From a candidate division NPL-UPA2 bacterium Unc8 (lineage in GTDB: Bacteria > NPL-UPA2): a stretch of DNA of 64,000 nucleotides. The stretch is from the NCBI GenBank assembly GCA_003574845.1, contig NDHY01000001.1, positions 73,043 through 137,042 of the forward strand, given 5' to 3'. Each line of letters opens with the position of its first letter. Position 1 is the first letter of the stretch. Shown piece by piece: positions 10,921 through 63,551 of this stretch. Under the pieces are notes generated by a model that had not been told where the DNA came from, made no database searches, and saw only the letters and a list, made by a program, of their open reading frames with translations. Both the position numbers and the translations under genes were made by a program.

Positions 10921-11232
10921 TGGCAAAGGCACAAAGGCACAAAGTGCGAAACTCTAAATACGAAACTCGAAACTCGAAACAAAATCAAAAGTCAAAATTA
11001 CAATGCAAAGGCACAAAGTTCACAGTTCACAGTTTACAGTTTACAGTTCAGGATTCTGACTTCTGGCTTCTGACTTCTGACTTCTGGCTTCTGACTCTCA
11101 TTCACCATTGACCATTGACCATTGACTATTGACCAATTTTTCTTGACATGATAGAAATTAAATGATAAAAATAAAGGCACAGAGTGGCAAAGGCACAAGA
11201 GCTGATAGCTGAAAGCTGAAGGCTGAAGGCTA
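10921..11232. repeat. Modular 7/8-bp tandem-repeat mosaic A
   Basis: Consecutive blocks of GGCACAAA, CGAAACT, TTYACAG, TTCTGRC, CCATTGA and GCTGA(A/T)(A/G) units. Confidence 0.9.
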
Positions 11233-11243
11233 ATAGGAAGCCC

Positions 11244-11456
11244 CTACTCCATTACTGCTACAACATCTCCCTCTGAAACTGACATACCTTCTGTAACTCT
11301 GATCTCCGTTATCTTTCCGCTTTTTGGCGCCTCAATCGGAATTTCCATTTTCATAGACTCTAATATTACAATAGTGTCTCCTTCACATATGTCAGCACCA
11401 TCACAGTGTGCAATTATCTTACATACTGTACCTGCAATAGGGGATTTTACTTCCAT
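11244..11456 (-). CDS. Stand-alone biotin/lipoyl carrier protein
   Basis: 70 aa; LESMKMEIPI biotinylation motif. Confidence 0.9.
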   Translation of the reverse strand: MEVKSPIAGTVCKIIAHCDGADICEGDTIVILESMKMEIPIEAPKSGKITEIRVTEGMSVSEGDVVAVME

Positions 11457-11526
11457 TGTTGCCCTCTCTATCCTTCAATAAGAAGGCATCACAAAAGTGC
11501 CGCCCTTTTTCGTGAGAACCCAGTCT

Positions 11527-12571: not shown

Positions 12572-12592
12572 CTTTCTCTTCGCTTCACTTTA

Positions 12593-13708: not shown

Positions 13709-13751
13709 CCACTTCCATTCCGCAAACCGAGTCTTTTGCCATTTTATTCAT
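13689..13751 (-). pseudogene. YHS-domain remnant
   Basis: Translates to MNKMAKDSVCGMEVDEKEKR* with an AAGGAG RBS; matches the YHS N-terminus (MAKDPVCGMEV) then stops within the mnmA 5' end. Confidence 0.6.
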
Positions 13752-13787
13752 CTCCTTTTTTAGCCTCATCAGGCCAGGTCTTACCTA

Positions 13788-16755: not shown

Positions 16756-16871
16756 TTTCAGCCTTCAGTAGTCAGTAGTCAGCAGTCTTCAGCTTTGTGC
16801 CTTTGTGCCTCTGTGCCTCTCTAACAGCTTTCAGCTCTTCAACTGTGAACCTTGAACCTTGAACCGTGAAT
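16756..16871. repeat. Repeat mosaic B (reverse orientation)
   Basis: TTTCAGC, AGTAGTC, CTTTGTGC/CTCTGTGC x3, TGAACCT units. Confidence 0.85.
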
Positions 16872-16872
16872 C

Positions 16873-16902
16873 TTGACAGGTTGTCATTTACTTCTTTATA
16901 AT
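16873..16902 (+). promoter_or_regulatory. Sigma70 promoter of the larE-gatAB operon
   Basis: TTGACA-18 bp-TATAAT, 15 bp upstream of ATG 16918. Confidence 0.7.
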
Positions 16903-17724: not shown

Positions 17725-18752
17725 GGAAGAGAAAAGCAATAGCCCTCCTCTCAGGTGGGCTGGACAGCACGCTGGCAGTCCGAATTGTTCAAGACCAGGG
17801 AATAGAGCTGGAAGCAGTGAACTTCCTGACTCCTTTCTGCACCTGCACTTCCCGCAACAGTTGCCAGCTTGCTTGTCGGCAAGCAGCAGAAACAATGAAC
17901 ATCCCTCTAAAAGTAATTAATGTCTTTTCAGAGTATTTAGACATTGTCAGACACCCAGAGCATGGCTATGGAAAAAATATGAATCCCTGTATTGACTGTC
18001 GCATTTTTATGTTCAGGAGAGCAAAGGACTATATGGAAGAGCGTGGAGCGTCTTTCCTCGTTACTGGAGAGGTGCTCGGGGAACGACCGATGTCCCAGCG
18101 CAGGGAGTCTATGGAAACAATTGACCGTGATACGGGGTTAGGAGGCCTTATCCTGCGGCCTCTCTCGGCACAGCTTTTGCCACCCACCATTCCTGAGAAA
18201 AATGGATGGATAGAGAGGGACAGGCTTCTTTCTATCAGCGGCCGTTCCCGTAAGCCACAGATGAAGTTAGCAGAAAAATTTGGCATTAATGATTATCCCT
18301 GTCCAGCGGGAGGGTGTCTTCTCACAGACGGCAATTTCGCCTCTCGCCTGAGAGATATCTTCAGGCATAGTACAGATATTTCGCTTAATGATATTAACCT
18401 GTTGAAATCAGGAAGGCACTTTCGTCTCTCTAATAGAGGGAAAATCGTTGTCGGAAGAAATGAGGAGGAAAATGAGCAGATTTTCTCTCTTGCCAGTGAA
18501 GGTGACCTTTGCTTTAAGATGATTGATTCTCTCGGTCCGCTTACTATTGCCAGGGGTGTGTTGGATGATGCGGATACCTTAATTGCTGCTTCTATCACGG
18601 CTCGCTATGGCAAGGAGAAAGAGAAGGAAAGGGTAAAGATTGCCTGCCTGAGAGTCAAGGAGTCGAGAGATAGAGAGTCAATAATCAAGAGCCAGAAGGT
18701 TTTGAGTGTTACTCCGCTCACGGATGAGGAAATAGAGCCTCTCCGGATTTAG
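17721..18752 (+). CDS. ThiI/MnmA-like PP-loop sulfurtransferase (DUF814-associated type)
   Basis: LSGGLDS, NPCIDCR, TGEVLGERPMSQ, PAGGCLLT, GRHFR. Confidence 0.8.
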   Translation: MRKRKAIALLSGGLDSTLAVRIVQDQGIELEAVNFLTPFCTCTSRNSCQLACRQAAETMNIPLKVINVFSEYLDIVRHPEHGYGKNMNPCIDCRIFMFRRAKDYMEERGASFLVTGEVLGERPMSQRRESMETIDRDTGLGGLILRPLSAQLLPPTIPEKNGWIERDRLLSISGRSRKPQMKLAEKFGINDYPCPAGGCLLTDGNFASRLRDIFRHSTDISLNDINLLKSGRHFRLSNRGKIVVGRNEEENEQIFSLASEGDLCFKMIDSLGPLTIARGVLDDADTLIAASITARYGKEKEKERVKIACLRVKESRDRESIIKSQKVLSVTPLTDEEIEPLRI

Positions 18753-18764: not shown

Positions 18765-20207
18765 ATGGAACTCGCAGAACTCGCGGCACATGAGATACAT
18801 TGCCTTCTTAAAAAGAAGGAAGTAAGCGTAGTTGAGGTCGTTGATGCAGTCCTAACCCGCATAGATGAAGTAGATGACAATATCGGTGCGTTCATAACGG
18901 TCAACGGGGAGGGGGCGCAGCGAGAAGCATTGAGGATAGACCAGGAAATAAGTCGTGGCAGAGAAATTCTTCCATTGACAGGTATTCCTGTTGCCATTAA
19001 GGATTTAATCTGCATTAAGGGGATGAAGACAACCTGTGCTTCCCGAATATTGAATAATTTTTATTCTCCTTACGATGCGACGGTCATTGAGAAGCTGCGC
19101 GAAGCCGGGACAATATTTATCGGTAAAACGAATATGGATGAGTTTGCGATGGGCTCTTCCACTGAGAATTCTTGCTTTGGCATAACGCGCAATCCTCTGA
19201 ATCCTGATACCGTTCCGGGTGGCTCAAGCGGAGGCTCGGCGGCAGCAGTGGCTGCCGGAGAGGCGATTATAGCTCTTGGTTCTGATACCGGGGGTTCAAT
19301 TCGTCAGCCGGCAGCGTTCTGTGGTGTCGTAGGGTTGGTGCCAACTTATGGGCTTGTTTCGCGCTTCGGGCTGGTGGCTTTTGCTTCGTCATTAGACCAG
19401 ATTGGACCGATTACCCGCGATGTGAGAGATTGTGCTCTTCTTATGAATCTCATCTGTGGGTATGACCCCCGGGACAGCACCTCGGCAGCGACAAACATTC
19501 CTGATTATACTGACTCTCTCTTAAATGATGTGCGGGAAGTAAAAATTGGCATTCCGAAGCAATACTTTGGAGAAGAAGTGGATGAGGAAGTAGCTGAAGC
19601 CATGAGAGAGGCGATGGCACTTTTTAAGAGGCATGGAGCGAAGATAGAGAATGTCTCGCTTCCTAATACTGAATATGCTATCGCAACTTATTATCTTATT
19701 GCCACTGCTGAGGCAAGTTCCAATCTTGCTCGTTATGATGGAGTGGGCTACGGGCAAAGAGAAAAGAGCGATAATATATTGGAGATGTATGAGAAAACGA
19801 GGGAAGCGGGATTTGGAGATGAGGTAAAGCGCCGCATAATGTTAGGAACTTATGTCCTCTCTGCTGGATATTATGAGACCTATTACCTCAAAGCGCAACA
19901 GGCAAGGGCTCTTATCAGGGATGATTTCGAAAAAGCATTTCAAAAGTTTGACTGCCTGCTTGCTCCTGTCTCTCCCACAACGGCGTTCAAGGTAGGAGAA
20001 AAAACAGACGACCCCTTAAAGATGTATCTTTCCGACATATTTACGATTCCTGTAAATCTCGCCGGATTGCCGGCAATATCTATCCCCTGTGGGTTTAACA
20101 GCCTCGGGAGCGCAATTGGTCTTCAACTTATCGCTAAGCCATTCAATGAAGAAATGCTGTTGCGCGTTGCTTACACCTTTGAGGAGAATACCAAAATGAG
20201 TAGGTAG
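18765..20207 (+). CDS. gatA: Glu/Asp-tRNA amidotransferase subunit A
   Basis: GKTNMDEFAMGSS, PGGSSGGS, GSDTGGSIRQPA, SSNLARYDG. Confidence 0.97.
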   Translation: MELAELAAHEIHCLLKKKEVSVVEVVDAVLTRIDEVDDNIGAFITVNGEGAQREALRIDQEISRGREILPLTGIPVAIKDLICIKGMKTTCASRILNNFYSPYDATVIEKLREAGTIFIGKTNMDEFAMGSSTENSCFGITRNPLNPDTVPGGSSGGSAAAVAAGEAIIALGSDTGGSIRQPAAFCGVVGLVPTYGLVSRFGLVAFASSLDQIGPITRDVRDCALLMNLICGYDPRDSTSAATNIPDYTDSLLNDVREVKIGIPKQYFGEEVDEEVAEAMREAMALFKRHGAKIENVSLPNTEYAIATYYLIATAEASSNLARYDGVGYGQREKSDNILEMYEKTREAGFGDEVKRRIMLGTYVLSAGYYETYYLKAQQARALIRDDFEKAFQKFDCLLAPVSPTTAFKVGEKTDDPLKMYLSDIFTIPVNLAGLPAISIPCGFNSLGSAIGLQLIAKPFNEEMLLRVAYTFEENTKMSR

Positions 20208-20250
20208 TGAGTAGAGGGTAGTGGGTGGGTCTAAGAGGTTAGGTAGGTGA
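20199..20250. repeat. Degenerate purine-rich heptamer tract C
   Basis: AGTAGGT/AGTGAGT/AGTGGGT-type units between gatA and gatB. Confidence 0.55.
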
Positions 20251-35728: not shown

Positions 35729-36606
35729 CTCTCTCTACTGTTGACTGTTGACTGTTGACTGTTGATTACTTCTTCGGCTGCCTTTCTCATCGCATCAAGA
35801 GGAGCCTCCTTCCCCGTCCAGAGCTCAAACGATAGCGCTCCCTGGTGAATGAGCATTCCGAGTCCCCCAACCACTGAGCAGCCTCTTTCTCGTGATGCCT
35901 GCATTAGTCTTGTCTCTTGCGGATTATAGACAAGGTCAAAGACCAGCGTCCGGGGTAGGAGCCATTCTGGATCGATGAGTAGCTTATCTCCTGCATTCAT
36001 GCCTACAGGCGTAGCATTAATTAGAATATCTGCTTTACCAACATTAAATTTAATCTTATCCCAGGAAATTACCCCGACACGGAGCTGAGGAATATTCCTT
36101 CCTATATCAGCAGCCAACCTCTTTGCCCGCGGAGCAATTTTATCAAAAATTATGAGCTCCCCTGCCCCCTCAAGTCCTGATTGCACCGCTACTGCTCTTC
36201 CAGCGCCACCAGCGCCGAGAATAACAATTCTCCTTCCCTGAATGTCAATTTTCCCCTCTTCTTTGAGAGCTTGCACAAACCCTTTTCCGTCAGTATTATA
36301 TCCAATGAGCTTTCCTGATCTTATGGCTACTGTGTTGACTGCTCCAATGCGTCTTGCTTCTTCAGAGACCTCATCAAGGCAGGCAATAACAGTCTCTTTA
36401 TGAGGAATGGTAACATTGAGCCCGATGATACCCAGAGAGCTAAGCCCGGCGACGGCTCGCCCTAAATTCTCTGGCCGCACCGCAAGTGGTAGATAGGCAC
36501 AGTCCAGTCCTAATGCGGCGAATGCGGCATTGTGAATCGCCGGCGATGCAGTATGTTCAATGGGAAAACCAATCACCCCGAATATTTTTGTCGTTCCCTT
36601 AATCAT
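35725..36606 (-). CDS. aroE: Shikimate dehydrogenase
   Basis: SPAIHN, NVTIPHK, GAVNT, GAGGA, NATPVGM; C-terminal tail encoded by a repeat. Confidence 0.96.
   Translation of the reverse strand: MIKGTTKIFGVIGFPIEHTASPAIHNAAFAALGLDCAYLPLAVRPENLGRAVAGLSSLGIIGLNVTIPHKETVIACLDEVSEEARRIGAVNTVAIRSGKLIGYNTDGKGFVQALKEEGKIDIQGRRIVILGAGGAGRAVAVQSGLEGAGELIIFDKIAPRAKRLAADIGRNIPQLRVGVISWDKIKFNVGKADILINATPVGMNAGDKLLIDPEWLLPRTLVFDLVYNPQETRLMQASRERGCSVVGGLGMLIHQGALSFELWTGKEAPLDAMRKAAEEVINSQQSTVNSRER
35737..35764. repeat. (ACTGTTG)x4 inside the aroE 3' end
   Basis: Four perfect heptamers encoding the NSQQSTVNS tail. Confidence 0.9.
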
Positions 36607-36623
36607 CTTGATTGCTTATTATA

Positions 36624-36652
36624 AGTATAGATAATGTTTTCTTTATTGTCAA
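36624..36652 (-). promoter_or_regulatory. Sigma70 promoter of the aroE operon
   Basis: TTGACA-17 bp-TATACT on the minus strand. Confidence 0.7.
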
Positions 36653-36747
36653 ATAAATGTAGTTATGGAAGTTAGGAGGAAGCGATCTAACTTACTTATT
36701 TGACAGCACCTATTTTCTTGTAGTAAACTAAATCATCAGTAAATAAT

Positions 36748-37010
36748 AAAGGCACAGAGGCACAAAGAAAATCAAAAATCAAAAGTCAAAATTACAATGC
36801 AAAATTCAAAATTAGAAATTGGGCCTACCCGTCATTCCCGCGAACGCGGGAATCCAGAGTAGCCCAGCCCTTTATGGGCGTAGTATATTAGGTGTTAGGT
36901 CTTGGGTGTTAGGCGGTGCGACCCCGATTTGCATCGGGGCATGTTTATCGCACATTGTTTCTGAAGGCTGAATGCTGATAGCTGATAGCTATTTAGGGTT
37001 TAGGGTTTAT
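36748..37010. repeat. Repeat mosaic E with embedded palindromes
   Basis: GGCACAGA/GGCACAAA, TCAAAA(A/G), GTTAGGT, GCTGATA, TTTAGGG units; ATTCCC-N8-GGGAAT (36834-36853); GTAG-led hairpin (36859-36879); CCCCGAT-TTGC-ATCGGGG (36922-36939). Confidence 0.85.
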
Positions 37011-37025
37011 AATTTATTGTAAAGA

Positions 37026-39010: not shown

Positions 39011-39150
39011 AAGGCACAAAGGCACAGAGGCACAAAGAAGCCTAAACTCTAAATACGAAACTCGAAACTCGAAACAAACTCAAAACTCAAATGACCGAAA
39101 TTCAAGACGTAGTTTAGGGTTTAGGGTTTAGGATTTAGGGTTTAGAATTT
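39011..39150. repeat. Repeat mosaic F
   Basis: GGCACA(A/G)A x3, CGAAACT block, then five TTTAGGG-type units at 39113-39147. Confidence 0.9.
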
Positions 39151-39165
39151 ATTTAAGAGGGAGGG

Positions 39166-40078: not shown

Positions 40079-40269
40079 CCCACCACCTACCTACCACTTA
40101 CCTATCTATTATTACATATATCTGCAAGAAATATCTATTAAAATCTTCTTTTTTTCTTGACAGCTCTGGCGAGGGGATGTATAAGCCATTTCACACTCCG
40201 AGTCTGAATGCTTAAGTTCCGAGAAATAGAATCACAGACTACTCACTACTTACTACCTGCTACTTACTC
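40079..40269. repeat. Degenerate CTAC-rich heptamer tracts G flanking the moaA promoter region
   Basis: CTACCAC/CTACTCA/CTACTTA-type units at 40079-40108 and 40237-40269. Confidence 0.6.
40157..40185 (+). promoter_or_regulatory. Putative sigma70 promoter of the moa operon
   Basis: TTGACA-17 bp-TATAAG. Confidence 0.5.
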
Positions 40270-40299
40270 ATCTTAATGATAAATAGTGTATGGTAAATA

Positions 40300-41699: not shown

Positions 41700-41704
41700 T
41701 TAAA

Positions 41705-42970
41705 ATGCTTGAACTTGAAGAGGCTACTCTAAGGATACTCGGCAGAATTAGGAAGCGAAGCGCTAAAACAGTAGCATTGGAAGAGGCTTTGGGGTTTGTT
41801 CTTGCCGAGGATATCGTTGCCCCATTTGACATGCCCCCATTTAACAAATCAGCTATGGATGGCTATGCAGTTTCCTCAACCGACATCGACTCCCCTCCTG
41901 TCAGGTTGCGTTGCACAGGAGAGGTCCCGGCAGGCAGCTACTCTAAATTTGCAATAAAGAAGGGGGAATGCGTAAAGATTATGACAGGCTCTCCAATTCC
42001 AGAAGGAGCAGACAGTGTAGTAATGGTAGAAGTCACAAAGTCGGTAAGCAGTCGGCAGTCGGCAGTCGGCAGTCGGCAGTCGGCAGTCAGAAGAGGCGGA
42101 CGGCGGGTTGTGGATTATGAGCAGATAGAGGTCTCGAAGCGAGTTAAAGAAGGAGAGAATGTATGTTTTAGAGGAGAGGAGATAAAAAATGGAGCCCTTG
42201 TTCTTCAGAAGGGGACCCTCATTAGAGCAGTTGAAGTTTCCGTCGCAGCTTCACTGGGAAAAGCAAGAATTAAAGTATATGAGGCGCCAAAGATTGCTGT
42301 CCTGACTACGGGTAGTGAGATAGTTGAGCCTGGCAGGAGAGTCGGTTACGGAAAAATTTACAATTCAAACGCGCATCTCATCCGCTCACTACTCTCATCT
42401 ATGAACTTAAAAGGGGAGTATCTTGGAATAGCCCGAGACGATGAAAAGCATCTCACCCTTAGAATAAAAGCAGGGTTGAAGTATGAAGTTCTTATCATCT
42501 CGGGGGGCGTCTCTCAGGGAGATTACGACCTTGTCCCTCGCATACTAAAAAAATGCCAGGTGAGAGAGGTGTTTCATAAGGTATCAATAAAACCAGGCAA
42601 GCCTTTCCTGTTTGGTGTCAGGGGCAGAACGCTCGTTTTTGGGGTTCCCGGCAACCCGGTTTCCACATACCTGAGCTTTCTGGTACTGATCAGACCTGCT
42701 CTAAATAAAATGATGGGCAAAGACGCATCTTGCAGCATTTGCAAAGGAATACTAATGAGTGATTTTCATGGAAGAGGAGGGCGAAAACGCTTTTTGCCTG
42801 TGTCCACGAGGATGAGAGGTAATATAAGGGAAGTCTTCCCGGTAACAACATATCATGGTTCAGCCGACATGGCTGCCCTCGTCAGGGCAGATAGCTTTAT
42901 GATTGTGGAGAGAGAACTCTTGTCCTTAAAGAAAGGCTCTGAAGTAGATATTTTGGCTTTTTCTGAATAG
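41705..42970 (+). CDS. moeA: Molybdopterin molybdotransferase with an in-frame repeat insertion
   Basis: PPFNKSAMDGYA, IMTG, SGGVSQGDYD, KPGKP, PGNPVS. Confidence 0.95.
   Translation: MLELEEATLRILGRIRKRSAKTVALEEALGFVLAEDIVAPFDMPPFNKSAMDGYAVSSTDIDSPPVRLRCTGEVPAGSYSKFAIKKGECVKIMTGSPIPEGADSVVMVEVTKSVSSRQSAVGSRQSAVRRGGRRVVDYEQIEVSKRVKEGENVCFRGEEIKNGALVLQKGTLIRAVEVSVAASLGKARIKVYEAPKIAVLTTGSEIVEPGRRVGYGKIYNSNAHLIRSLLSSMNLKGEYLGIARDDEKHLTLRIKAGLKYEVLIISGGVSQGDYDLVPRILKKCQVREVFHKVSIKPGKPFLFGVRGRTLVFGVPGNPVSTYLSFLVLIRPALNKMMGKDASCSICKGILMSDFHGRGGRKRFLPVSTRMRGNIREVFPVTTYHGSADMAALVRADSFMIVERELLSLKKGSEVDILAFSE
42048..42089. repeat. (GCAGTCG)x5 + GCAGTCA within moeA
   Basis: Six heptamers = 42 bp, frame preserved, within SSRQSAVGSRQSAVRR. 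Confidence 0.95.
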
Positions 42971-42987
42971 GGAGGAGGATTCCTAAT

Positions 42988-43263
42988 ATGACGCGTGATG
43001 ATATGGCAGTTAATCTTTCAAAAGAAGTGGGATTGCGTCGCAGGGAAGCGCGCATAATTATTGACCGTATATTTGAAGATATATCCGGGTGTCTGGGGAG
43101 AGGAGAGAGTGTCACATTGCGAGGGTTTGGCACTTTCAGTGTGAGGCGACAAAAGGCGCGCCTGGGGAGAAATCCAAGAAAACCCGAAATTGAAGTCCAT
43201 ATCCCGGAAAGAAAAGTTGTCCATTTTAAGGCTGGAGGAAAACTAAGCGGGATGGTGAAATAA
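42988..43263 (+). CDS. HU/IHF family DNA-binding protein
   Basis: LRGFGTF, ARLGRNP, IPER.V..FKAG. Confidence 0.93.
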   Translation: MTRDDMAVNLSKEVGLRRREARIIIDRIFEDISGCLGRGESVTLRGFGTFSVRRQKARLGRNPRKPEIEVHIPERKVVHFKAGGKLSGMVK

Positions 43264-43271
43264 TAATCTAA

Positions 43272-44564: not shown

Positions 44565-44569
44565 ATAGC

Positions 44570-44784
44570 GCACCAGAGCACCAGAACACCAATTTCCAAT
44601 TTCTAATTTCTAATTTTCAATTAATTTCCAATTTCCAATTTCATCTCTCTCTACTCTCTACTCTCTACTAAATAGCTATCAGCTATCAGCATTCAGCCTT
44701 CCAATTTTCAATTTTCAATTTCAAGCCCTGAACCCTGAGCCCTGAACCCTGAGCCCTGAGCCCTTTGTGCCTCTGTGCCTTTGT
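44570..44784. repeat. Repeat mosaic I, overlapping the der 3' end
   Basis: GCACCAGA, AATTTC(C/T), CTCTCTA, TATCAGC, CCCTGA(A/G), CT(C/T)TGTGC blocks. Confidence 0.9.
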
Positions 44785-46108: not shown

Positions 46109-46300
46109 GATTTCGGATTTCGGATTTTTCATTCTTTGTGCCTTTTTTATATCACAGGCAAGCAATCAATGGCAATATAGAAATTAGTGCGTAAACCCCT
46201 TTCGTTAGAGATTTATCTCTAAGCGGGGTAAATTTATCATTGCGACTGAAAGAAATGTTTGATATAATTCTTTTTCTGAATTATTGATTGAAATATTGAA

Positions 46301-46990
46301 ATGATTAAAGATAATCTTTGCGTGGTGATGGAGGCAATCACCCGGGCTGCAGAGAAAGTGGGCCGTCGGGGTGAGGATGTTGAGCTCGTAGCGGTCACCA
46401 AGATGGTAGATGCCGCCAGGATTAATGAAGCAATTGAGGCCGGAGTCAGAGCAATTGGAGAGAATCGGGTTCAGGAAGCAGCGACCAAGTATAACATTGT
46501 TGTGGATGGAGTCAGGTGGCATTTCATAGGGCATCTTCAAAGGAATAAGGCGAAGAGGGCAGCAGGGATTTTTAGCCTTATTCATTCGCTTGATTCTATT
46601 TCGCTCTCACAGGAAATTAATCGCCACGCTGTTGCGCTGGGGAAGCAAGTAGAAGCACTTGTAGAGGTAAACATTTCTGGAGAGGAGACAAGGTTTGGTC
46701 TTCGCCCTGAAGAATTAATAGGGTTCCTGAAAGAAGCCTCAGTTCTCAAAAATCTGCGTATCAGTGGGTTGATGACAATGTCTCCTTTTACTGATGAACC
46801 GGAGAGTTCCCGTGCTTACTTCCGCGAGCTACGTCTCCTCAGCGAGGAGGTAGCATCTCACAATATTGAGAATATAGAGATGAAGTATCTCTCAATGGGG
46901 ATGAGCCAGGATTTTGAGACAGCTATTGAAGAAGGAGCGAACATGGTAAGAGTAGGGACGGCAATTTTTGGCAGTCGCCCCCCTGCATAG
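46301..46990 (+). CDS. yggS: PLP homeostasis protein
   Basis: VAVTK, GENRVQE, WHFIGHLQRNK, LSMGMS, VRVGTAIFG. Confidence 0.96.
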   Translation: MIKDNLCVVMEAITRAAEKVGRRGEDVELVAVTKMVDAARINEAIEAGVRAIGENRVQEAATKYNIVVDGVRWHFIGHLQRNKAKRAAGIFSLIHSLDSISLSQEINRHAVALGKQVEALVEVNISGEETRFGLRPEELIGFLKEASVLKNLRISGLMTMSPFTDEPESSRAYFRELRLLSEEVASHNIENIEMKYLSMGMSQDFETAIEEGANMVRVGTAIFGSRPPA

Positions 46991-47018
46991 GCAGCACAGT
47001 TCTTGAGAGAAGTAAATT

Positions 47019-47834
47019 ATGTTAAAGGGTAAAAAAATTGGAATAATTGGTGTTGGGAACATTGGCTCTGCTATTATTAGAGGGATTTTAGGGACAGCAG
47101 GAAGGATTCCCCCGAAAAATATTATCGTCAACGATATTGACAAAAAAAAATCACGGGCTATAAGCCGTGAATTATCAGTTATTAGTGTTGCCGATAATAT
47201 AGAATTAGGCAGGCAGGCAGGCATTATAATTCTTGCTGCTAAACCGCACGATATAGAAGAGATACTAAAAGATATAGCGGACTTGCAATCGGGAAAATTG
47301 ATTATCTGCATTGCTGCCGGAATAAAAACGAGCTACATTGAAAAAATGCTACCCGGGCAGGTGGCGGTAGTGAGAGCGATGCCTAATATGCCCGCCCTAA
47401 TCGGGGAAGGAATGACTGCCATCTCTGCCGGTAGATTTGCCGGTGAGGAAGAATTGCAACTTACTGAAGCAATCTTCTCTGCCATGGGAGAGACCGTCAG
47501 AATAAGTGAGGATTTGATGGATACTGCTACTGCCGTAAGTGGAAGTGGTCCCGCATATTTCTTTCTGATGATGGAGGCGCTTATTGAGGCAGGAATTGCC
47601 GGCGGGCTTTCTCCGCAAGTGGCACATCGGCTGGTGATACAGACGGCTTATGGAGCAGCGAAGATGACAAAAGAGTCAGAAAAAGAGCTTTTCCTCCTGC
47701 GAGAGGAAGTAACCTCACCAGGAGGAACCACAGAGGCTGGAGTTGCTATTTTAGAAAAGAAGAGATTTAAGGACATACTGACCGAAGCAGTAGCAGCAGG
47801 AGCTGCAAGATCTAAGAAATTGAGCAGGAAATGA
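47019..47834 (+). CDS. proC: Pyrroline-5-carboxylate reductase
   Basis: GVGNIG, RAMPN, SGSGPAY, VTSPGGTT. Confidence 0.96.
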   Translation: MLKGKKIGIIGVGNIGSAIIRGILGTAGRIPPKNIIVNDIDKKKSRAISRELSVISVADNIELGRQAGIIILAAKPHDIEEILKDIADLQSGKLIICIAAGIKTSYIEKMLPGQVAVVRAMPNMPALIGEGMTAISAGRFAGEEELQLTEAIFSAMGETVRISEDLMDTATAVSGSGPAYFFLMMEALIEAGIAGGLSPQVAHRLVIQTAYGAAKMTKESEKELFLLREEVTSPGGTTEAGVAILEKKRFKDILTEAVAAGAARSKKLSRK

Positions 47835-48685
47835 GCAAAATTGGGATTATTGGAGGAACGGGGCTTTATGAGATGGAGTCTTTTCATAACAAAGAATGGA
47901 TTGAGCTGGAAACTCCATTTGGCAAGCCCTCTGATAGCTATCTAAGAGGAAAATTAGGAGAAAAAGAGGTACTTTTTCTTCCCCGTCACGGAAGAGGACA
48001 CACCATTCTTCCCGGCGAACTTAATTATCGGGCAAACATCTATGGTTTCAAAAAATTAGGCGTAGAACGACTCATTGCAGTAAGTGCGGTGGGCAGCCTG
48101 AAGAAAAAGCTGCAGCCACTGGATATCTTTCTTCCTGACCAGTTTTTTAATCGCACCAGCCGGGCAGATACGTTCTTTGGAGAAGGGATTGCCGCTCACA
48201 TTAGTTTTGCCGACCCGATTTGCCCCTACCTTATTGAAATTCTTGCTCAAGCGGCAAGGAAAATGAAGGCAAGGGTGCACAAAGGCGGGACATATGTTAA
48301 TATTGAAGGACCGGCATTTTCTACCAGAGCTGAATCAGGGCTCTATCGGCAGTGGGGAATGGACATTATTGGAATGACGAGTATGGTAGAGGCAAAGTTA
48401 GCGCGGGAAGCGGAGATGTGCTATGCCAATATGGCAATGATTACTGATTATGACTGCTGGCATGGAGAAAGCGTAACCGTTGACATTATTATTGAAAATC
48501 TGAAAAAAAATACAAACATGTCAATGCGTACTCTCAGGAGAGCTGTTGAGCTTATTGATGTCGGTGATGAGCGGAGTTGCTTTTGTCGCAGTGCCCTCAA
48601 AGATGCTATTGTTACTGACCGGGAGAAAATCTCTCCGGAGGTGATTGAGCGACTTGGCCCTCTTGTGAAGAATTACCTCAAATAA
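47831..48685 (+). CDS. mtnP: S-methyl-5'-thioadenosine phosphorylase
   Basis: GIIGGTG, PRHG, NYRANI, EGPAFSTRAES, TDYDCW. Confidence 0.93.
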   Translation: MSKIGIIGGTGLYEMESFHNKEWIELETPFGKPSDSYLRGKLGEKEVLFLPRHGRGHTILPGELNYRANIYGFKKLGVERLIAVSAVGSLKKKLQPLDIFLPDQFFNRTSRADTFFGEGIAAHISFADPICPYLIEILAQAARKMKARVHKGGTYVNIEGPAFSTRAESGLYRQWGMDIIGMTSMVEAKLAREAEMCYANMAMITDYDCWHGESVTVDIIIENLKKNTNMSMRTLRRAVELIDVGDERSCFCRSALKDAIVTDREKISPEVIERLGPLVKNYLK

Positions 48686-48736
48686 AGGCACAGAGGCACA
48701 AGAGCTGATAGCTGATAGCTGAAGGCTGTGGGCTGT
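48685..48736. repeat. Repeat mosaic J
   Basis: Starts at the mtnP stop: GGCACAGA-GGCACAAGA-GCTGATA x2-GCTGAAG. Confidence 0.85.
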
Positions 48737-48766
48737 TAGAAGGTTTGAATTTAAAAAAGGAAAAAT

Positions 48767-53105: not shown

Positions 53106-53136
53106 AAAGCAAGTAATGGTAGCAAGTAATGGTGGC

Positions 53137-53165
53137 TTGACTTTTGCTAAGCTTGCTGTTATAAT
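53137..53165 (+). promoter_or_regulatory. Sigma70 promoter with extended -10
   Basis: TTGACT-17 bp-TATAAT with TG at the extended position. Confidence 0.65.
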
Positions 53166-53269
53166 CTCAACGCTTAGGAAATTCAAAAAGAGCGGGTAGT
53201 AGATAGTAGGTAGTGGGTAGGGCTGAAGTGAGGGTGAGCTTAACGAAGAACACAAACAGTGTGGGAGTA

Positions 53270-58172: not shown

Positions 58173-58174
58173 TG

Positions 58175-58245
58175 CAGAGAGAGGCATAGAGGCACAAGAG
58201 CTGAAAGCTGAAAGCTATTTAGTAGAGAGTAGAGAGAGGCACAAA
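58175..58245. repeat. Repeat mosaic L
   Basis: GGCACAAGA-GCTGAAA x2-GCTATTTAG-TAGAGAG x2-GGCACAAAG between pilT and pilB copy 2. Confidence 0.85.
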
Positions 58246-58247
58246 GT

Positions 58248-59801
58248 ATGATAAAAACACATGAGGAGAAGAGAGGGAGAAAGGAAGATGCGCTACCCAT
58301 TAAAGTGAGCGAGATTGAGATAAATCCAGAGGTTATCACCAGGATCTCTCCATCAATAGCAAGAATTTATACGATCATGCCGATGAGCTTTGCTCGCAAC
58401 ACCCTAACCATAGCCACCGCCAATCCGCACAATATCCGCCTTCTTGATGACCTGCGATTTATGTTAAATGTTGAGATAGAAGCAGTTCCCAGCACAGAAG
58501 ATGAGATTAAAAGAGCAATTGAAAGGTATTATGGACCAGAGGGAGCCTCCGCCGCCGACTTGCTTGCCCAGATAGAGCAAGGTGGAAAGGTAACCGTCAG
58601 AGAAGAAGTTATAGACATTGAGGAGCTTCAACAGCTTGCCAAGAAGGCCTCTACTGCCAGGCTGCTCAATTTAATCTTAGGACGGGCAATAAAGGAGAGA
58701 GCAAGTGATATTCATTTTGAGCCGTTCGAGGACCAGTTCAGGGTCCGATATCGGATTGATGGAGCGCTCTATGACACAGCTCCTCCACCGAAGCACCTTG
58801 GTGCGGGGATTTCCTCAAGACTTAAAGTGATCGCCGGGATGGACATTGCCGAGCGCCGAATCCCACAGAGCGGCAGAATCGAGGTAAAGATAGGAGGAAG
58901 AAACGTTGACCTGCGAGTTTCAACCCTCCCAACTGTTTTCGGGGAGAGCATCGTGTTGAGAGTGCTGGACCGCTCCATTGTGATGTTATCGCTGGATCAA
59001 CTTGGGATGCTTCCTAATGATCTTAAAACGTTCAGACAGCTTATTCAAAAGCCAAATGGGATTCTCCTCGTTACCGGGCCAACAGGATGCGGAAAGACCA
59101 CAACTCTCTACTCTGCCCTTGCCTCCCTTGATAGCGATACCACTAAAATCATTACAACAGAGGACCCGGTTGAGTATGACATTCCAGGAATTGTGCAGGT
59201 TCACATAAGAGAACAGATAGGGCTGACTTTTGCCACTTGTCTCAGACATATTCTCCGGCAGGATCCCGACACAGTCCTTGTCGGAGAGATGCGCGATCTG
59301 GAGACAGTGCAAATTTCGATTCAAGCCTCGCTCACCGGGCACCTTGTGCTCAGCACTCTACACACAAGCGATGCCGCAACAACTATAATAAGACTCCTTG
59401 ACATGGGCATTGAGCCCTTTCTGATTGCCTCTACCTTAGAGGCAATAATTGCCCAGAGACTTGTGCGAACAATCTGCCAGAATTGCAAGGAGCCCTACCG
59501 GCCGGACGAAGAGGAGCTACGGTCAATCAGGCTGACGGCAGAGGAGGTGAGAGAAAGAACTTTTTACCGGGGAAAGGGATGCGGCCTCTGTAATAACACC
59601 GGCTATAAAGGAAGAACAGGAATCTTTGAGCTTCTCATTCCCAATGACAACGTCAAGGTTCTTATTATGAAGAGGGCATCAGCAGGGGACATTCGCGATG
59701 AGACAACAAGGCAGGAGCTAAAAACAATAAGAGAAGATGGATTAGAGAAAATATACCAGGGAATTACCACCATTGAAGAGGTAAGGAGGGAAATAATTTA
59801 A
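58248..59801 (+). CDS. pilB: PilB/GspE ATPase, copy 2 (short N-terminus)
   Basis: ASDIHFEP, GPTGCGKTTT, LRQDPD, tetracysteine motif. Confidence 0.9.
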   Translation: MIKTHEEKRGRKEDALPIKVSEIEINPEVITRISPSIARIYTIMPMSFARNTLTIATANPHNIRLLDDLRFMLNVEIEAVPSTEDEIKRAIERYYGPEGASAADLLAQIEQGGKVTVREEVIDIEELQQLAKKASTARLLNLILGRAIKERASDIHFEPFEDQFRVRYRIDGALYDTAPPPKHLGAGISSRLKVIAGMDIAERRIPQSGRIEVKIGGRNVDLRVSTLPTVFGESIVLRVLDRSIVMLSLDQLGMLPNDLKTFRQLIQKPNGILLVTGPTGCGKTTTLYSALASLDSDTTKIITTEDPVEYDIPGIVQVHIREQIGLTFATCLRHILRQDPDTVLVGEMRDLETVQISIQASLTGHLVLSTLHTSDAATTIIRLLDMGIEPFLIASTLEAIIAQRLVRTICQNCKEPYRPDEEELRSIRLTAEEVRERTFYRGKGCGLCNNTGYKGRTGIFELLIPNDNVKVLIMKRASAGDIRDETTRQELKTIREDGLEKIYQGITTIEEVRREII

Positions 59802-59806
59802 GAAAG

Positions 59807-61054
59807 ATGCCAATCTTTAATTACGTAGCAACGGATGCAGGTGGCAAAGAGACGAAAGGAGTTATAGACGCAGAGACAGAGGTCATGGCTCTCTCCAGAA
59901 TCCGAGAAATGTCTCTCTTTCCTCTGCAACTGACGAAACAAGCAGCTGCTGCTCCTGGTGCTCAGGACAAGAAGGGAGGGATTCTTGGAGGGCAAATTAA
60001 GATACCTTTTCTCTCAAGCCGCGTCTCAGGGAAAGAACTTACACCATTTACAAGACAACTTGCTACCCTGATTAATGCAGGACTTCCTCTGATAAGGAGT
60101 CTTAGTGTCCTTATGAATCAGATGAAGCCATCGGCGCTAAAGGATATCGTAATGGGCATTATAGTCGATGTAGAAAGCGGAAGCAGCTTTGGCGATGCTC
60201 TAATAAAATACCCGAAGGTGTTTTCAAAAGTGTTTATTGGCATGGTAAAAGCAGGAGAGGCGGGCGGAGTATTAGATAAGTCGCTGGAGCGCCTGGCAGA
60301 GTTTGCCGAGAAAAGCGCCGCTTTAAGGGGAAAAATAAAAACAGCGATGACCTATCCAATCATAGTTGTCGTCGTAATTGTTGGTATCATGGCAGTAATA
60401 TTTCGATTTGTTATCCCGACATTTGAGGAAATGTTTGCCGACATGGAGATGGCGCTTCCTGCCCCAACGCGGATTTTAATAGAAACAAGCACATTTATTA
60501 GAGAGCAGGCTTTTCTTGTCCCACTCACTCCTATAGCGCTTATCGCTCTTTATTCTCTGATTCAGAAAACAAAGGGTGGCGGGTTAGCCATTGACAAGGG
60601 CAAGCTGCGGATTCCGCTTATGGGACCACTTATCCGAAAAATTGCCGTGGCAAGATTTAGCAGAACATTAGGAACATTGGTTACCAGTGGAGTTCCCATT
60701 CTCCAGGCACTTGATACCGCCAGGGAGACAGCGGGAAACCTTGTAATATCCGGAGCAATTAAAACTGCTCATGACAGTGTAAAGGCAGGAGAGACGCTTG
60801 CGGCCCCTTTTGAGGCCAGCAACGTTTTTCCCCCTCTCGTAAGTAGCATGATCAGCGTTGGTGAAGAAACAGGAAATCTTGATGAAATGCTTCTAAAGGT
60901 CGCCGATACCTATGACGAAGAGGTAGATAGAGCCGTGGAAGCGCTCTCCGCATCACTTGAGCCAATAATGCTTGTATTTATGGGGATAATTGTTGGTTTT
61001 ATCGTTATCTCTCTCTTTGTCCCCCTCATCCAGATGGCAATGGCAATAGCATGA
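59807..61054 (+). CDS. pilC: Type IV pilus platform protein PilC/GspF
   Basis: FTRQLATL..AG, AGEAGG.L, VGEETG.L, LEP. Confidence 0.93.
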   Translation: MPIFNYVATDAGGKETKGVIDAETEVMALSRIREMSLFPLQLTKQAAAAPGAQDKKGGILGGQIKIPFLSSRVSGKELTPFTRQLATLINAGLPLIRSLSVLMNQMKPSALKDIVMGIIVDVESGSSFGDALIKYPKVFSKVFIGMVKAGEAGGVLDKSLERLAEFAEKSAALRGKIKTAMTYPIIVVVVIVGIMAVIFRFVIPTFEEMFADMEMALPAPTRILIETSTFIREQAFLVPLTPIALIALYSLIQKTKGGGLAIDKGKLRIPLMGPLIRKIAVARFSRTLGTLVTSGVPILQALDTARETAGNLVISGAIKTAHDSVKAGETLAAPFEASNVFPPLVSSMISVGEETGNLDEMLLKVADTYDEEVDRAVEALSASLEPIMLVFMGIIVGFIVISLFVPLIQMAMAIA

Positions 61055-62445
61055 GACTAAGGCACATGTCCATGGAGGAGCAGAGAATCCTTCTTGTTGA
61101 TGACGAAGAAAACATGAGGAAGAGCCTGGGGGCACTCCTCAGGAGAGAAGGGTATCGTGTTGAGACCGCCTCCACCGGAGGTGAGGCCACCCGGTTGGCA
61201 GCAAAGCGCTCCTTCGCCCTGCTTGTGATTGACCTTAAATTAGGAGAAATGGATGGAATAGAGACATACCTCCGCATAAAAAAAGGAAGTCCCCGCACAC
61301 TGGCGATTATCATAACCGGTCATGCCAGTATGGAGAGCGCAATTGAGGCAATTCGCGCCGGGGCATATGACTATTTAGTAAAACCGTTCCGCTTTGAGGA
61401 GATGCTCCTAACAGTAAAAAGAGCGCTGGATTACCAGCAAGTCCGAGAGGAAAATGTCTATCTCCATCGGGAACTAAAAGGAAAGTTCTGGCTCGGTAAT
61501 GTCATTGGAAAAAGCATCCAGATGGAGAAGGTATTCCAGGTAGTGAAAAAGGTGGCAGATTCAGATGTAACTGTGCTTCTGCGAGGCGAGAGTGGAACCG
61601 GCAAGGAACTCATTGCCCGAGCAATCCATTACAGTGGCCCGCGGCGAGAAAAAAGATTTATTGCCATAAGCTGCGGGGTGATTTCCGAAACCCTCCTTGA
61701 ATCAGAACTTTTTGGATACGAGAAAGGAGCTTTCACCGGAGCAGTAACAAGGAAAAAGGGGTTCTTTGAGGTAGCCGATGGGGGAACCGTTCTTCTTGAT
61801 GAAATTGGTGACCTCTCTCCTGCCACCCAGATGAAGCTGCTACGAGTCTTGCAGGAAAGGGAATTTCAGCGGGTTGGAGGTACAGAGACCATAGCTGTAG
61901 ATGTCCGAATAATCAGTGCCACCAACAAGGACTTAGAAAAAGAGGTCAGGGAGCAACGTTTCCGGGAAGACCTGTATTATCGAATCAATGTCATTCCCAT
62001 TACTCTGCCACCACTGCGGGAAAGGAAAGGAGACATTCCTCTCCTCATTGAGAATTTTTTGGCAAAATACCGGGGGAAAGAGAGGGAAATAAAAATTTCT
62101 GCCGAAGCAAAAGAGCTGCTCATGAATTACCATTGGCCCGGTAATGTGCGGGAATTAGAGAATGTCATTGAGGGAGCAATTGCTCTAAGCTCCGGAAGCA
62201 TCATTTCCGCCAAAGATATTGCTCTCAATATGGGTCCAGCGACTACAAGAGAAACGGCAATAGCTGTCAACGAAAGGTTAACGCTGAAAGAGGCAAAGGA
62301 AAAGCTTGAGGAGAAATTTATAAAGAAGGCGCTGGAGAAAGCCCGTGGAAACGTGGCACAGATTGGGAGAGAACTCGGGCTAAGTCGCAGGCACCTATAT
62401 GAGAGAATGGACCACTACGGCATTAACCCGGGAGCATATAAATGA
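61051..62445 (+). CDS. Sigma54-dependent response regulator (NtrC/PilR-like)
   Basis: REC domain, GESGTGKE, GAFTGA, WPGNVREL, C-terminal HTH. Confidence 0.95.
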   Translation: MRLRHMSMEEQRILLVDDEENMRKSLGALLRREGYRVETASTGGEATRLAAKRSFALLVIDLKLGEMDGIETYLRIKKGSPRTLAIIITGHASMESAIEAIRAGAYDYLVKPFRFEEMLLTVKRALDYQQVREENVYLHRELKGKFWLGNVIGKSIQMEKVFQVVKKVADSDVTVLLRGESGTGKELIARAIHYSGPRREKRFIAISCGVISETLLESELFGYEKGAFTGAVTRKKGFFEVADGGTVLLDEIGDLSPATQMKLLRVLQEREFQRVGGTETIAVDVRIISATNKDLEKEVREQRFREDLYYRINVIPITLPPLRERKGDIPLLIENFLAKYRGKEREIKISAEAKELLMNYHWPGNVRELENVIEGAIALSSGSIISAKDIALNMGPATTRETAIAVNERLTLKEAKEKLEEKFIKKALEKARGNVAQIGRELGLSRRHLYERMDHYGINPGAYK

Positions 62446-63551
62446 AGCGTTCATGGTTTTTGTGGGACGTAGCATACCTGGCGATTTTGGGCTTGCTTAT
62501 GGTTCTTTTTATCCTCGGCGCTGTTGCAGTACTCCGATGGGAAGGGCAGCAGCAAATGGCAATTATAGGCGGAATATTCTTCGTCCTGGGATACTTAAGC
62601 CACCCCTACCTCTCCCGATCGATTTGGAGCCCGCTGGCAAAACTAATGCGGGAGAGCCGGGGAAGAGACAATAGTCAGCGCGCGCTACCGCAGGAGCTAA
62701 TAGAGGATTTACGCCTCTCCCGGCTGGAGGTGAAGCGCTGGTCAGAAGAGTTAGAAAAAAGAGTAGAAGAGAGAACAAGAAAGATAATTGCTCTCCGGAG
62801 GAAATTGATTCACTTTGAGAAGATGGCCTCATTGGGTGGGATGGCAGCAGGGGTAGCACACGAGATAAGAAACCCTCTTGGAATTATCGGCATTGCTGCC
62901 GGGTACCTGAATAGTTCAATAAGCGCTAACAATGACTCCCTGAGTAAGAGTGAGGTGGCAGTCTTAAGAGAACAGGTTGCAATCATTGAAGAGGAGGTTG
63001 AAAGAATGAGAAGAACCACCGACAACCTTCTCTCCTTCTCCCGATTTTCTCTGGAAGGAGTGCCAGAACCAATTCACATCAACGATGTAATAGATGAGTC
63101 CATTGCTTATCTGCAGGATACTACTCTGCAAGGGATAGAGTTGCTCCGGGACCTTGACCGCACTCTTCCTCCAGTAAGGATTGACCGGGACCAGTTACGT
63201 CAGGTGTTTTTAAACATTATCCAGAATGCTTCCCAGGCAATGTTAGATGGAGGGACAATAGAAATCCACTCTAAGAGGGGAGAGAAGCGCTCAATGGTTG
63301 AGGTCTCCTTTCGAGACACTGGCTGCGGAATCCCTTCAGGGGACCTGAAAAGAATATTTGACCCGTTTTGGACGACGAAGAGCGCCGGGAGGAAAGGGTT
63401 CGGCCTGGGACTGGCAATTTCGCACAACATTATCCGCAAGAACAGAGGAGATATCAGTGTAAAGAGTGTCCTCGGGGAGGGAACAACCTTTACAATCAAG
63501 CTCCCGATAACGGAAAATGGTAAAGAAAGGCACAAAGGCACAAAGTTATGA
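62442..63551 (+). CDS. Sensor histidine kinase (NtrB/PilS-like)
   Basis: Two TM segments, AHEIRNPL, N box, DTGCG, FDPF, GLGL. Confidence 0.93.
   Translation: MKRSWFLWDVAYLAILGLLMVLFILGAVAVLRWEGQQQMAIIGGIFFVLGYLSHPYLSRSIWSPLAKLMRESRGRDNSQRALPQELIEDLRLSRLEVKRWSEELEKRVEERTRKIIALRRKLIHFEKMASLGGMAAGVAHEIRNPLGIIGIAAGYLNSSISANNDSLSKSEVAVLREQVAIIEEEVERMRRTTDNLLSFSRFSLEGVPEPIHINDVIDESIAYLQDTTLQGIELLRDLDRTLPPVRIDRDQLRQVFLNIIQNASQAMLDGGTIEIHSKRGEKRSMVEVSFRDTGCGIPSGDLKRIFDPFWTTKSAGRKGFGLGLAISHNIIRKNRGDISVKSVLGEGTTFTIKLPITENGKERHKGTKL

Follow-up and report, generated by a model that had tools for sequence, protein, structure and literature searches.

The question raised by a 64,000-nucleotide stretch of the genome of the candidate division NPL-UPA2 bacterium Unc8 (GenBank assembly GCA_003574845.1, contig NDHY01000001.1, positions 73,043 to 137,042; G000:C1:73043-137042, hereafter the window) is where its dispersed mosaics of 7- and 8-bp tandem repeats come from. 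At some 14 loci, short runs of different units are joined in different orders among ordinary housekeeping genes, which include a GH1 glycosidase gene, ndk, aroE, trmD, yraN, moaA/moaC/moeA, hisS, der, mtnP, ileS, pilT and genes for a GspE/PilB-type ATPase and a histidine kinase. Dispersed arrays of heptamers are on record from cyanobacteria and from several further phyla, with no agreed account of their origin, and the excerpts available of one survey state that no mechanism of spread is evident (PMC4679880). An earlier note on the window had proposed that modules are copied between loci and that the mosaics may be stacked empty sites of a mobile cassette system connected with four-helix-bundle (PF05635/TIGR02436) and GxxExxY genes. 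That idea is partly supported by the present analysis, being right in kind and unproven in detail: on balance, the mosaics are probably the orphan tandem-repeat arms of small insertable gene cassettes, similar to the intervening sequences (IVS) of 23S rRNA, and these arms still slip, drift and are copied.

The source genome (G000) comprises 996 kb in 24 contigs, is 94.7% complete and 0.2% contaminated, and has a G+C content of 45%; public sequencing runs containing the window stretch carry the label groundwater metagenome. Its closest comparison is a sister species of the same genus (G001), with gene identities of about 85–92%. Tandem Repeats Finder (TRF) returned 398 period-7 rows for G000 vs. 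27 for a version of it shuffled by a first-order Markov model (15-fold) and 126 period-8 rows vs. 28 (4.5-fold). These rows merge into 334 mosaics covering 16.9 kb, 12.7 kb of it outside open reading frame (ORF) calls, which are crude; a mosaic is present in 168 of the 431 gaps of at least 30 bp and absent from the other 263. There are 195 unit classes, the commonest being the octamer AAAGGCAC/ACAGAGGC, i.e., GGCACARA. TRF recovers arrays of period 7 or 8 at 13 of the 14 loci listed earlier, and at the remaining one, near 40079, the first array has period 11 and only the second has period 7 (Table 1).

Copying between loci is general in the genome and is not peculiar to the window. G000 has 262 non-periodic blocks, 25 bp or longer, that recur exactly at distant places (14 of them in the window), and 188 of the 262 lie within 60 bp of a mosaic. 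The identities that first suggested such copying are real: positions 10949–10983 equal 39044–39078 (35 bp), 10981–11009 equal 36775–36803 (29 bp), and 36963–36995 is the reverse complement of 44669–44701 over 33 exact base pairs (about 33–34). A further inverted pair, given before as 24 bp, is confirmed as an inverted match, but its length is 37 nt at 95% identity (44654–44690/58200–58236). A degenerate AAAATCA/AAATGCA module of roughly 50 bp, present in about 20 copies genome-wide, contains the 29-bp block. The 33-bp block forms the end of a second module of roughly 80 bp, which has a GC-rich hairpin and whose 18-nt core is found in 12 exact copies in G000. Slippage alone cannot account for shared non-periodic blocks, as the earlier note had argued, but both slippage and drift in place also occur. 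Slippage is seen directly in an 11.1-kb contig of another assembly (L036), which matches window positions 40103–51237 at 99.86% identity through four mosaics, including those at 44570 and 48685, and which differs within the mosaics by one extra 7-bp AATTTCT-type unit at 44597 and an A/G octamer variant at 44773. This contig reproduces the 44570 and 48685 mosaics, which speaks against private misassembly of the shared blocks at those loci.

The association of such arrays with genes is found in related genomes. The octamer dimer GGCACARAGGCACA occurs 114 times in G000 and 27 times in G001. Three genomes from a second family of the order have it 66, 74, and 25 times, and one genome from a further family of the phylum has it 22 times; the remaining genomes of the 31 searched have 0–1 copies, and a reversed control pattern occurs in none. 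Octamer arrays in those relatives often form inverted pairs 60–160 bp apart. Profile searches of 13 genomes of the phylum found PF05635 in three (six matches in G001, five in G002, and two in G008) and TIGR04256, the GxxExxY profile, above its cut-off in two (G006 and G002), with several fragments besides. The genes are preceded by tandem units of 7–10 bases and followed by the inverted complement; the unit differs by cassette lineage, yet both arms stay complementary. With an inverted-repeat score of at least 13 taken as the presence of inverted flanks, these were present at 12 of 17 cassette loci (PF05635 or GxxExxY genes or fragments; an 18th locus, whose flank was too short, was left out) vs. 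1 of 15 control ORFs taken from those loci. The association of heptamer flanks with four-helix-bundle genes put forward in the earlier note holds in this lineage. For GxxExxY genes inverted tandem units are likewise present, but the GGCACAGAG-like (GGCACARA) flanks ascribed to them occur at 0 of 6 loci examined and flank a PF05635 pseudogene instead. No four-helix-bundle or GxxExxY gene had been seen in the window, and this is true of the rest of G000 as well: the profile search returned no PF05635 match, and the search for GxxExxY genes returned no credible candidate, the one TIGR04256 match, at 18.8 bits, being below threshold and lying within an ORF of 1016 aa.

The pseudogene in question, at locus L159 of G001, connects the octamer of the window to a cassette. 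There GGCACAAAGGCACAAAGGGACAGAG is followed by ATGATAAAAACATATAGAGATTTA, which encodes the gene start MIKTYRDL (the usual family start is MIK.YRDL) of a decayed PF05635 gene, and the inverted octamers TGTGCCTTTGTGCC form a downstream arm about 400 bp away, so that GGCACARA stands on both sides of the pseudogene. G000 has the junction of the octamer with ATGATAAAA four times, twice in the window at 58248 and 63548, and every copy ends after 9–13 nt; positions 58248–58259 correspond to the junction of the octamer arm with the start-codon region of the L159 pseudogene. Before this comparison, ATGATAAAA beside the octamers had been considered as an extended −10 promoter box, which was dropped in favor of the PF05635 gene start. 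Two other arm families are common to G000 and to elements of G001 besides the octamer with its ATGATAAAA(ACA) junction: the AAAATCA/AAATGCA block, which is an arm of L153 and C324 and has at least 20 matching places in G001, one of them directly upstream of a PF05635 gene, and the CGAAAC block, which is an arm of a C62 hairpin.

Whole elements differ between the two species. Seven G001 insertions, either cassettes or gene-less arms, lie opposite compact, array-free gaps of G000 (Table 1). The element at C324 retains both arms together with about the first 12 and the last 3 codons of an L153-type gene, which marks it as a cassette that has lost its interior and sits at another locus. An insertion specific to G000 is found at the stop of the histidine kinase gene, where G001 has 58 bp and G000 has 205 bp made up of octamers, ATGATAAAA, and a dispersed repeat of 128 bp. 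In other orthologous gaps the promoters are retained, and the arrays differ between G000 and G001; neither array of the 53108..53220 locus, for example, is found in the orthologous G001 gap. The clean G000 sites indicate gain or loss of whole elements, not excision scars. Of the proposal of stacked empty sites, the part that stands is that array-bounded elements are present or absent between G001 and G000; no excision scar was seen in G000, where only six inverted array pairs (period-7/8 arrays within 600 bp) occur vs. 12 direct pairs, so the mosaics are not recognizable as two-armed empty sites. It was also correctly noticed that several mosaics begin beside stop codons, namely those of yraN (stop 39009, mosaic from 39011), mtnP (48685, from 48684), and pilT (58172, from 58175). 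The shared arm families, the coming and going of elements at stops and starts, and the decay to gene-less arms together make descent from cassettes the best reading of the G000 mosaics.

According to the model suggested by these comparisons, a full cassette would consist of a gene for a four-helix-bundle protein (PF05635) of roughly 120 aa or for a GxxExxY nuclease-like protein, placed between an array of 7–10-base units and its inverted copy, and would insert between the stop of one host gene and the next start, usually in host orientation. An internal deletion may then remove the gene, leaving gene-less arms that persist or spread and that would be all that G000 keeps. The arms would change by replication slippage, with gain or loss of units, and by point mutations that spread through an array; arm blocks of about 25–130 bp would be copied between loci, the likeliest route being recombination or template switching from one array to another with units in common, and this copying would place the same modules in different orders at different loci. 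Given blocks present at many loci and a lineage-specific arm insertion in a genome that lacks cassette genes, we infer that the copying needs no cassette-encoded protein in cis and is probably performed by host recombination.

Several observations weigh against descent from cassettes. Searches of G000 by tblastn with 14 cassette proteins gave chance matches inside ordinary genes only, and in blast searches with the G001 cassettes only the arms matched, with no gene remnant longer than about 13 nt. No excision footprint is present in G000 at the seven sites filled in G001, and no target-site duplication was seen by eye at L150, L153, and L159, three sites whose boundaries are ambiguous inside repeats. 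Most G000 mosaics are stacks of arrays in one direction, and two-armed relics are rare. No candidate for an insertion or excision enzyme acting on the arms emerged among those checked (reverse transcriptase, Y1 transposases, RNase III): the reverse transcriptase profile (PF00078), considered as a source of tandem units, has no match in G000, and the six Y1 genes each carry palindromes or repeats of their own, with an octamer within 450 bp of only one. In moeA, where the heptamer array of the window is translated in frame (SRQSAVGSRQSAV...), G001 has a longer CCAATCA/CCAATTA array at the same codon, with CAGTCGC as its first unit, and the sequences of both species would fit drift of units in place without exchange.

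The orientation of the arrays can be read in more than one way, which also belongs on this side of the balance. Of the period-7/8 arrays that lie between co-directional genes, 185 have their purine-rich strand in the gene sense and 47 have it on the opposite strand, as expected if the arms came in with co-oriented cassettes. Among the 56 GGCAYARA arrays of G000 (13 inside crude ORFs), those in co-directional gaps run in the gene sense in 23 cases vs. 3 antisense, and about half of the co-oriented ones begin 5–15 nt past the end of the upstream gene. The sense strand is, however, purine-rich in background intergenic and coding DNA too, and array polarity could instead reflect replication direction or selection on transcripts. 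Convergent and divergent gaps show no significant polarity and thus give no significant signal to separate transcription from replication as the cause, GC skew being confounded by a strong excess of G over C on the sense strand.

An origin that needs no cassettes is offered by autonomous simple-sequence satellites, in which slippage favors 7-nt units, arrays form in place under weak selection, a few favored units with occasional gene conversion make loci look alike, and cassettes merely sit in gaps that hold arrays. This agrees with the one-unit indel between near-identical assemblies, the drift of units at the fixed moeA site in both species, the large number of unit classes, and the scarcity of inverted partners; excerpts of a survey also report that heptanucleotides are the commonest long simple repeats in several phyla, for which an explanation in polymerase contacts was given (Mrazek et al. 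2007 via PMC4679880). Satellites are nevertheless an unlikely explanation, given idiosyncratic non-periodic blocks that are identical at distant loci and mostly next to mosaics, the abundance of the same octamer in five other genomes of the phylum at a YraN identity of about 46–56% (with a reversed control at zero), and inverted flanks that distinguish cassette loci from control ORFs; moreover, all seven G000 sites opposite G001 elements are array-free, which argues that arrays arrive with the elements. Selection on functional cis-elements, whether unstructured purine-rich spacers or protein-binding tracts of operon transcripts, an octamer 3′-end signal, or inverted pairs serving as terminators in the manner of repetitive extragenic palindromic (REP) sequences and bacterial interspersed mosaic elements (BIME), would account for the sense bias of the arrays and for octamers starting shortly past stops. 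The conservation of the octamer across families of the phylum, the T-runs that follow inverted octamer pairs 60–160 bp apart in relatives, and the role in translation proposed for TAACTGA repeats in the excerpts available (PMC4679880) point the same way. We regard such selection as distinctly unlikely to be the origin of the mosaics, since orthologous gaps of G000 and G001, between genes about 90% identical, keep their promoters while their arrays are wholly different or missing, 263 of 431 gaps have no array, and convergent and divergent gaps follow no orientation rule.

The presence of six PF01797 matches in the 1-Mb G000 and seven in G001 would allow the arms to be elements of the kind known as REPIN (REP doublets forming hairpins), moved by the Y1 transposases of the genome (IS200/IS605-type, similar to REP-associated tyrosine transposases, RAYT); the extragenic position of the elements and the gene-less inverted pairs of relatives agree with such an origin. 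It is very improbable in view of the separate palindromes of the Y1 genes and their near lack of octamers, the direct tandem and non-palindromic character of the units, and the counts in the 13 genomes, in which Y1 matches are not correlated with octamers (G004 has 74 octamer dimers and a single Y1 match). It is barely credible that metagenome assembly across short repeats produced the shared blocks and the mosaics. Contigs do end exactly at mosaics (L036 and L037 of two other assemblies start, break, or diverge at 40103, and G001 contigs end on both sides of the mtnP/ileS gap), and the mosaic at 36.7 kb is wholly multi-copy and stands in place of an expected essential gene; against this, the 11.1 kb of L036 agree with the window through four mosaics, typical reads are longer than the blocks, and the same architecture is present in finished cyanobacterial plasmids. 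Orphan cassette arms remain the preferred reading of the G000 mosaics.

Among known systems, the ORF-bearing IVS of 23S rRNA in Coxiella and Leptospira are the closest described relatives of the cassettes. In the excerpts available, an S23p/PF05635 ORF lies in a stem of terminal inverted repeats, the elements are termed selfish, their sporadic distribution suggests horizontal spread, and their origin and mobility are given as unexplained (PMC4990558). As far as those excerpts go, IVS and cassettes are alike in a length of about 0.4–0.5 kb, in inverted terminal repeats around a PF05635 ORF, and in sporadic distribution. The present elements differ from IVS, which reside in rRNA helices, in lying between or inside protein-coding genes and in having arms made of tandem arrays of 7–10-base units, which in G000 are all that is found; and whereas IVS stems are cut by RNase III, canonical RNase III is missing at the syntenic site in G000 and G001.

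The short tandemly repeated repetitive (STRR) sequences of heterocystous cyanobacteria are heptamers, and the (ACTGTTG)n array of the window is presumably the reverse complement of an STRR unit. STRR and G000 arrays are both dispersed, mostly intergenic, head-to-tail heptamers with many unit variants, enriched over chance; the differences are that the host here is apparently not a cyanobacterium and that an 8-base unit dominates in G000. To our knowledge, STRR have not been described in connection with gene cassettes. In Nostoc punctiforme, Elhai and colleagues reportedly found in 2008 small dispersed repeats (SDR) inside tandem heptamer repeats and took them to be mobile; SDR so described resemble the G000 modules, which are also very small repeated modules inside heptamer repeats.

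A cassette link is seen on cyanobacterial plasmids themselves. A G002 four-helix-bundle protein matches 25 plasmid records, mostly of Nostoc, Calothrix, Trichormus, and other cyanobacteria, and heptamer arrays (e.g., TCAGGAG/TCAGAAT, GGTGACA, AGCTAAA) directly flank seven of the eight plasmid genes examined, so the claim about heptamer flanks of four-helix-bundle genes extends beyond the phylum. Several of the eight have a short inverted copy downstream, seven are co-oriented with both neighbors, and the TCAGGAG/TCAGAAT units resemble the TTCTGAC arrays of the window. Over the first 50 kb of a Nostoc punctiforme plasmid, period-7 arrays occupy 6 of 42 gaps, of which two flank a four-helix-bundle gene and three others are gene-less inverted pairs. 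As an aside, a four-helix-bundle gene with heptamer arrays stands between cas6 and cas4 on plasmids of Anabaena sp. 90 (L174) and Pseudanabaena galeata (L176), with different units.

Other comparisons are more distant. TAACTGA repeats are intergenic direct repeats of Beggiatoaceae, cyanobacteria, and Bacteroidetes with occasional in-frame copies inside ORFs, for which the excerpts available suspect horizontal spread with “no mechanism evident” (PMC4679880); like the G000 arrays they are heptamer direct repeats near gene boundaries across distant phyla, but, as described there, a single dominant unit lies close to start codons. The text of that paper contains no occurrence of “four helix,” “S23,” or “intervening sequence” (PMC4679880). 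REP, BIME, and REPIN, as far as the source was available, are likewise extragenic mosaics of short repeats, often past stops, with non-autonomous hairpin doublets and a Y1 family in the genome (PMC3116915), whereas the G000 units are direct tandem repeats without palindromes, and the Y1 genes are not flanked by arrays. Miniature inverted-repeat transposable elements (MITE) combine terminal inverted repeats with a target-site duplication; G001 elements have inverted arms, and no target duplication was seen at three junctions with ambiguous boundaries. Periods of 7–8 nt without spacers set the G000 arrays apart from clustered regularly interspaced short palindromic repeats (CRISPR), whose 24–48-nt repeats alternate with unique spacers. 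No literature linking heptamer arrays to PF05635 or GxxExxY genes was found, bioRxiv lying outside the search, and a prior description is possible; among the papers found for GxxExxY, TIGR02436, PF05635, or “23S rRNA-intervening sequence protein,” none is about repeat flanks by its title and the start of its abstract.

It is tentatively suggested, as a wider possibility that we hold with some doubt, that bacterial heptamer and octamer satellites, including cyanobacterial STRR, are arms and relics of one widespread class of selfish cassettes akin to ORF-bearing rRNA IVS. If so, arms would keep spreading after all cassette genes are lost, moved in trans by host replication or recombination functions instead of an enzyme encoded in the cassette. 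The build of the cassettes—a gene between inverted arrays, insertion at stops and starts, decay to arms—would make the so far descriptive heptamer puzzle testable and would offer a lead on the function of the PF05635 and GxxExxY families. G000 is an informative extreme in this respect, with hundreds of arms in about 1 Mb, no cassette gene, blocks shared by multiple loci, and at least one lineage-specific arm insertion. Annotation has to reckon with such arms, at which metagenome assemblies break and by which ORF ends are lengthened or newly made.

Table 1. Repeat mosaics and arrays of the window, elements of the sister species G001 opposite G000 gaps, and Y1 transposase-like genes of G000
Feature	Position	Strand	Composition and setting
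Mosaic, 5′ part	10921..11236		GGCACAAA octamers 10924–10944; CGAAACT array with 35-bp shared block 10947–10983
Mosaic, middle	10921..11236		29-bp degenerate AAAATCA block 10981–11009; AGTTCAC, TTCTGAC, CATTGAC arrays
Mosaic, 3′ part	10921..11236		Promoter-like TTGACA-N17-TAAAAA (about 11136–11170); octamers again 11173–11198; GCTGAWA array 11200–11236
Mosaic	16756..16876		Divergent gap between thiazole synthase gene (−) and larE (+); TCAGTAG array, reverse-oriented CTTTGTGCC octamers, TGAACCT array
Array	20199..20226	+	Short degenerate AGTGGGT, 4 copies, 76% matches; gap between two + strand ORFs
Array	35737..35765	−	(ACTGTTG)x4.1, CAACAGT on gene strand; inside last codons of shikimate dehydrogenase ORF
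Mosaic	36748..37012	+	Dispersed modules: octamers, AAAATCA/AAATGCA block, GTCATTCC...GGAATC hairpin, GGTGTTA units; further, hairpin module (core 36922–36939), GCTGAWA and TTTAGGG arrays
Mosaic	39011..39151	+	From 2 nt past yraN stop; octamers x3.4; CGAAAC block common with 10949–10996; ends in TTTAGGG/TTTAGGA array short of next gene (39166)
Two arrays	40079..40256		ACCACCTACCT array 40082–40104 (period 11) and ACTACTC array 40238–40256 (period 7); conserved promoter between
Array	42048..42088	+	(GCAGTCG)x5.9, 42 nt, in frame within moeA, inside MoeA_N match (3–185)
Mosaic	44570..44784	−	Fills convergent hisS/der gap; GCACCAGA octamers adjoin hisS stop; rest in der sense: AAATTGG, TAGAGAG, GCTGAWA, GAAAATT, TCAGGGC arrays; GGCACARA octamers reaching der ORF tail
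Array locus	46109..46143		Upstream of der: (GATTTCG)x2.7 and one CTTTGTGCC unit; G001 has CTGGTGCA octamers at same position
Mosaic	48684..48740	+	Octamers overlap mtnP stop, then GCTGATA/GCTGAAG units up to ileS leader
Two arrays	53108..53220	+	13-mer x2 (53108–53133) and GGTAGTA array (53195–53220) flanking promoter conserved in G001
Mosaic	58175..58259	+	Past pilT stop: GGCAYARA units, GCTGAAA, TAGAGAG, then GGCACAAAG-T-ATGATAAAAACA (58248–58259)
Mosaic locus	63526..63688	+	Octamers form last codons of histidine kinase ORF, then ATGATAAAA (63548), then 128-bp dispersed repeat 63561–63688
G001 insertion	L150		G001 502 bp vs. G000 14 bp; directly after TAA stop
G001 insertion	L153		G001 529 bp vs. 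G000 0 bp
G001 insertions	L159		Two: cassette and separate gene-less inverted array pair
G001 insertion	C324		Between gene ending at 57072 and pilT
G001 insertions	C62		Two
Y1 gene	C1:2481-3218
Y1 gene	C1:8852-9301
Y1 gene	C12:65779-66633
Y1 gene	C12:164008-164949
Y1 gene	C18:97172-98095
Y1 gene	C20:38057-38722

The hairpin module with 12 copies (window 36913–36960 and 11 other places) reads GGTGCGA-CCCCGAT-TTGC-ATCGGGG-...-TCGCAC and usually has ACCATTG-type arrays before it and GCTGAAA arrays after it. Eight of the 12 copies lie 36–120 nt upstream of co-oriented, functionally unrelated genes (epimerase-like, dnaE, trmD, ABC ATPase, ribD, purF, purB, and xerC-like). The module has no Rfam match; in the window Rfam gave three tRNAs and no other family, with nothing credible at 36600–37100. 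A reading of the octamer as a sigma-54 promoter was rejected on spacing, by inspection against the consensus.

The mosaic at 36.7 kb lies between a conserved promoter and trmD, in the slot that holds rpsP in G001–G004: the gene lies near trmD/yraN in all four and, in G001, directly between the promoter and trmD. In G000 this slot (window 36728–37021) holds the repeat mosaic at a length within about 4 bp of the G001 segment, and rpsP (S16) was not found anywhere in the genome by PF00886 or by tblastn with the S16 of G001. The gene may truly have been lost or moved, or the assembly may have gone wrong in the multi-copy modules; S16 homologs 84–92% identical to that of G001 are present in public data and are not attributable to G000.

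RNase III processing of arm stems was considered as a requirement of the system and rejected. TIGR02191 (RNase III) has no match in G000, and the genes that flank rnc in G002 abut in G000 (C23 about 18633–18654, L180) and in G001 (91% identity over the whole stretch); the only RNase III-domain ORF of G001, of 152 aa, lies on an unrelated contig with a nucleotidyltransferase/HEPN-like pair. Since canonical rnc is missing at the syntenic site while G001 holds cassettes, processing of the arms by RNase III is not essential in the genus. Several of the Y1 (IS200/IS605-type) transposase-like proteins (PF01797) of G000 are 220–315 aa long with a C-terminal extension.

Arrays supply the last codons and stop of the der (44708–44786), histidine kinase (63526–63551), and aroE (35725–35765) ORFs, and the first ATG of the GspE-type ORF is that of the ATGATAAAAACA relic (58248), so gene ends and starts assigned by ORF rules next to mosaics are unreliable; the array at 35737 falls past the shikimate dehydrogenase family match (residues 2–284 of 293). 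The exact 128-bp dispersed repeat directly 3′ of the octamer/ATGATAAAA relic at 63561–63688 contains a GC-rich hairpin. In G001 a gene-less element of roughly 170 bp with GATTACAC-type inverted arms is found upstream of two promoters (L124, G001:C286; L127, G001:C134), and arms of the same type bracket an intact GxxExxY gene of G006 (L160, G006:C194). L037 is 99.7% identical to the window from 40103 on, and upstream of that point a reverse octamer run replaces both the array and the upstream gene of the window; a rearrangement at strain level or a branch point of the assembly may account for this. Synteny is also broken at the mosaic-rich hisS/der gap, where in G001 (L001 4300–4682) hisS is followed by an antitoxin/toxin-like pair and not by der.

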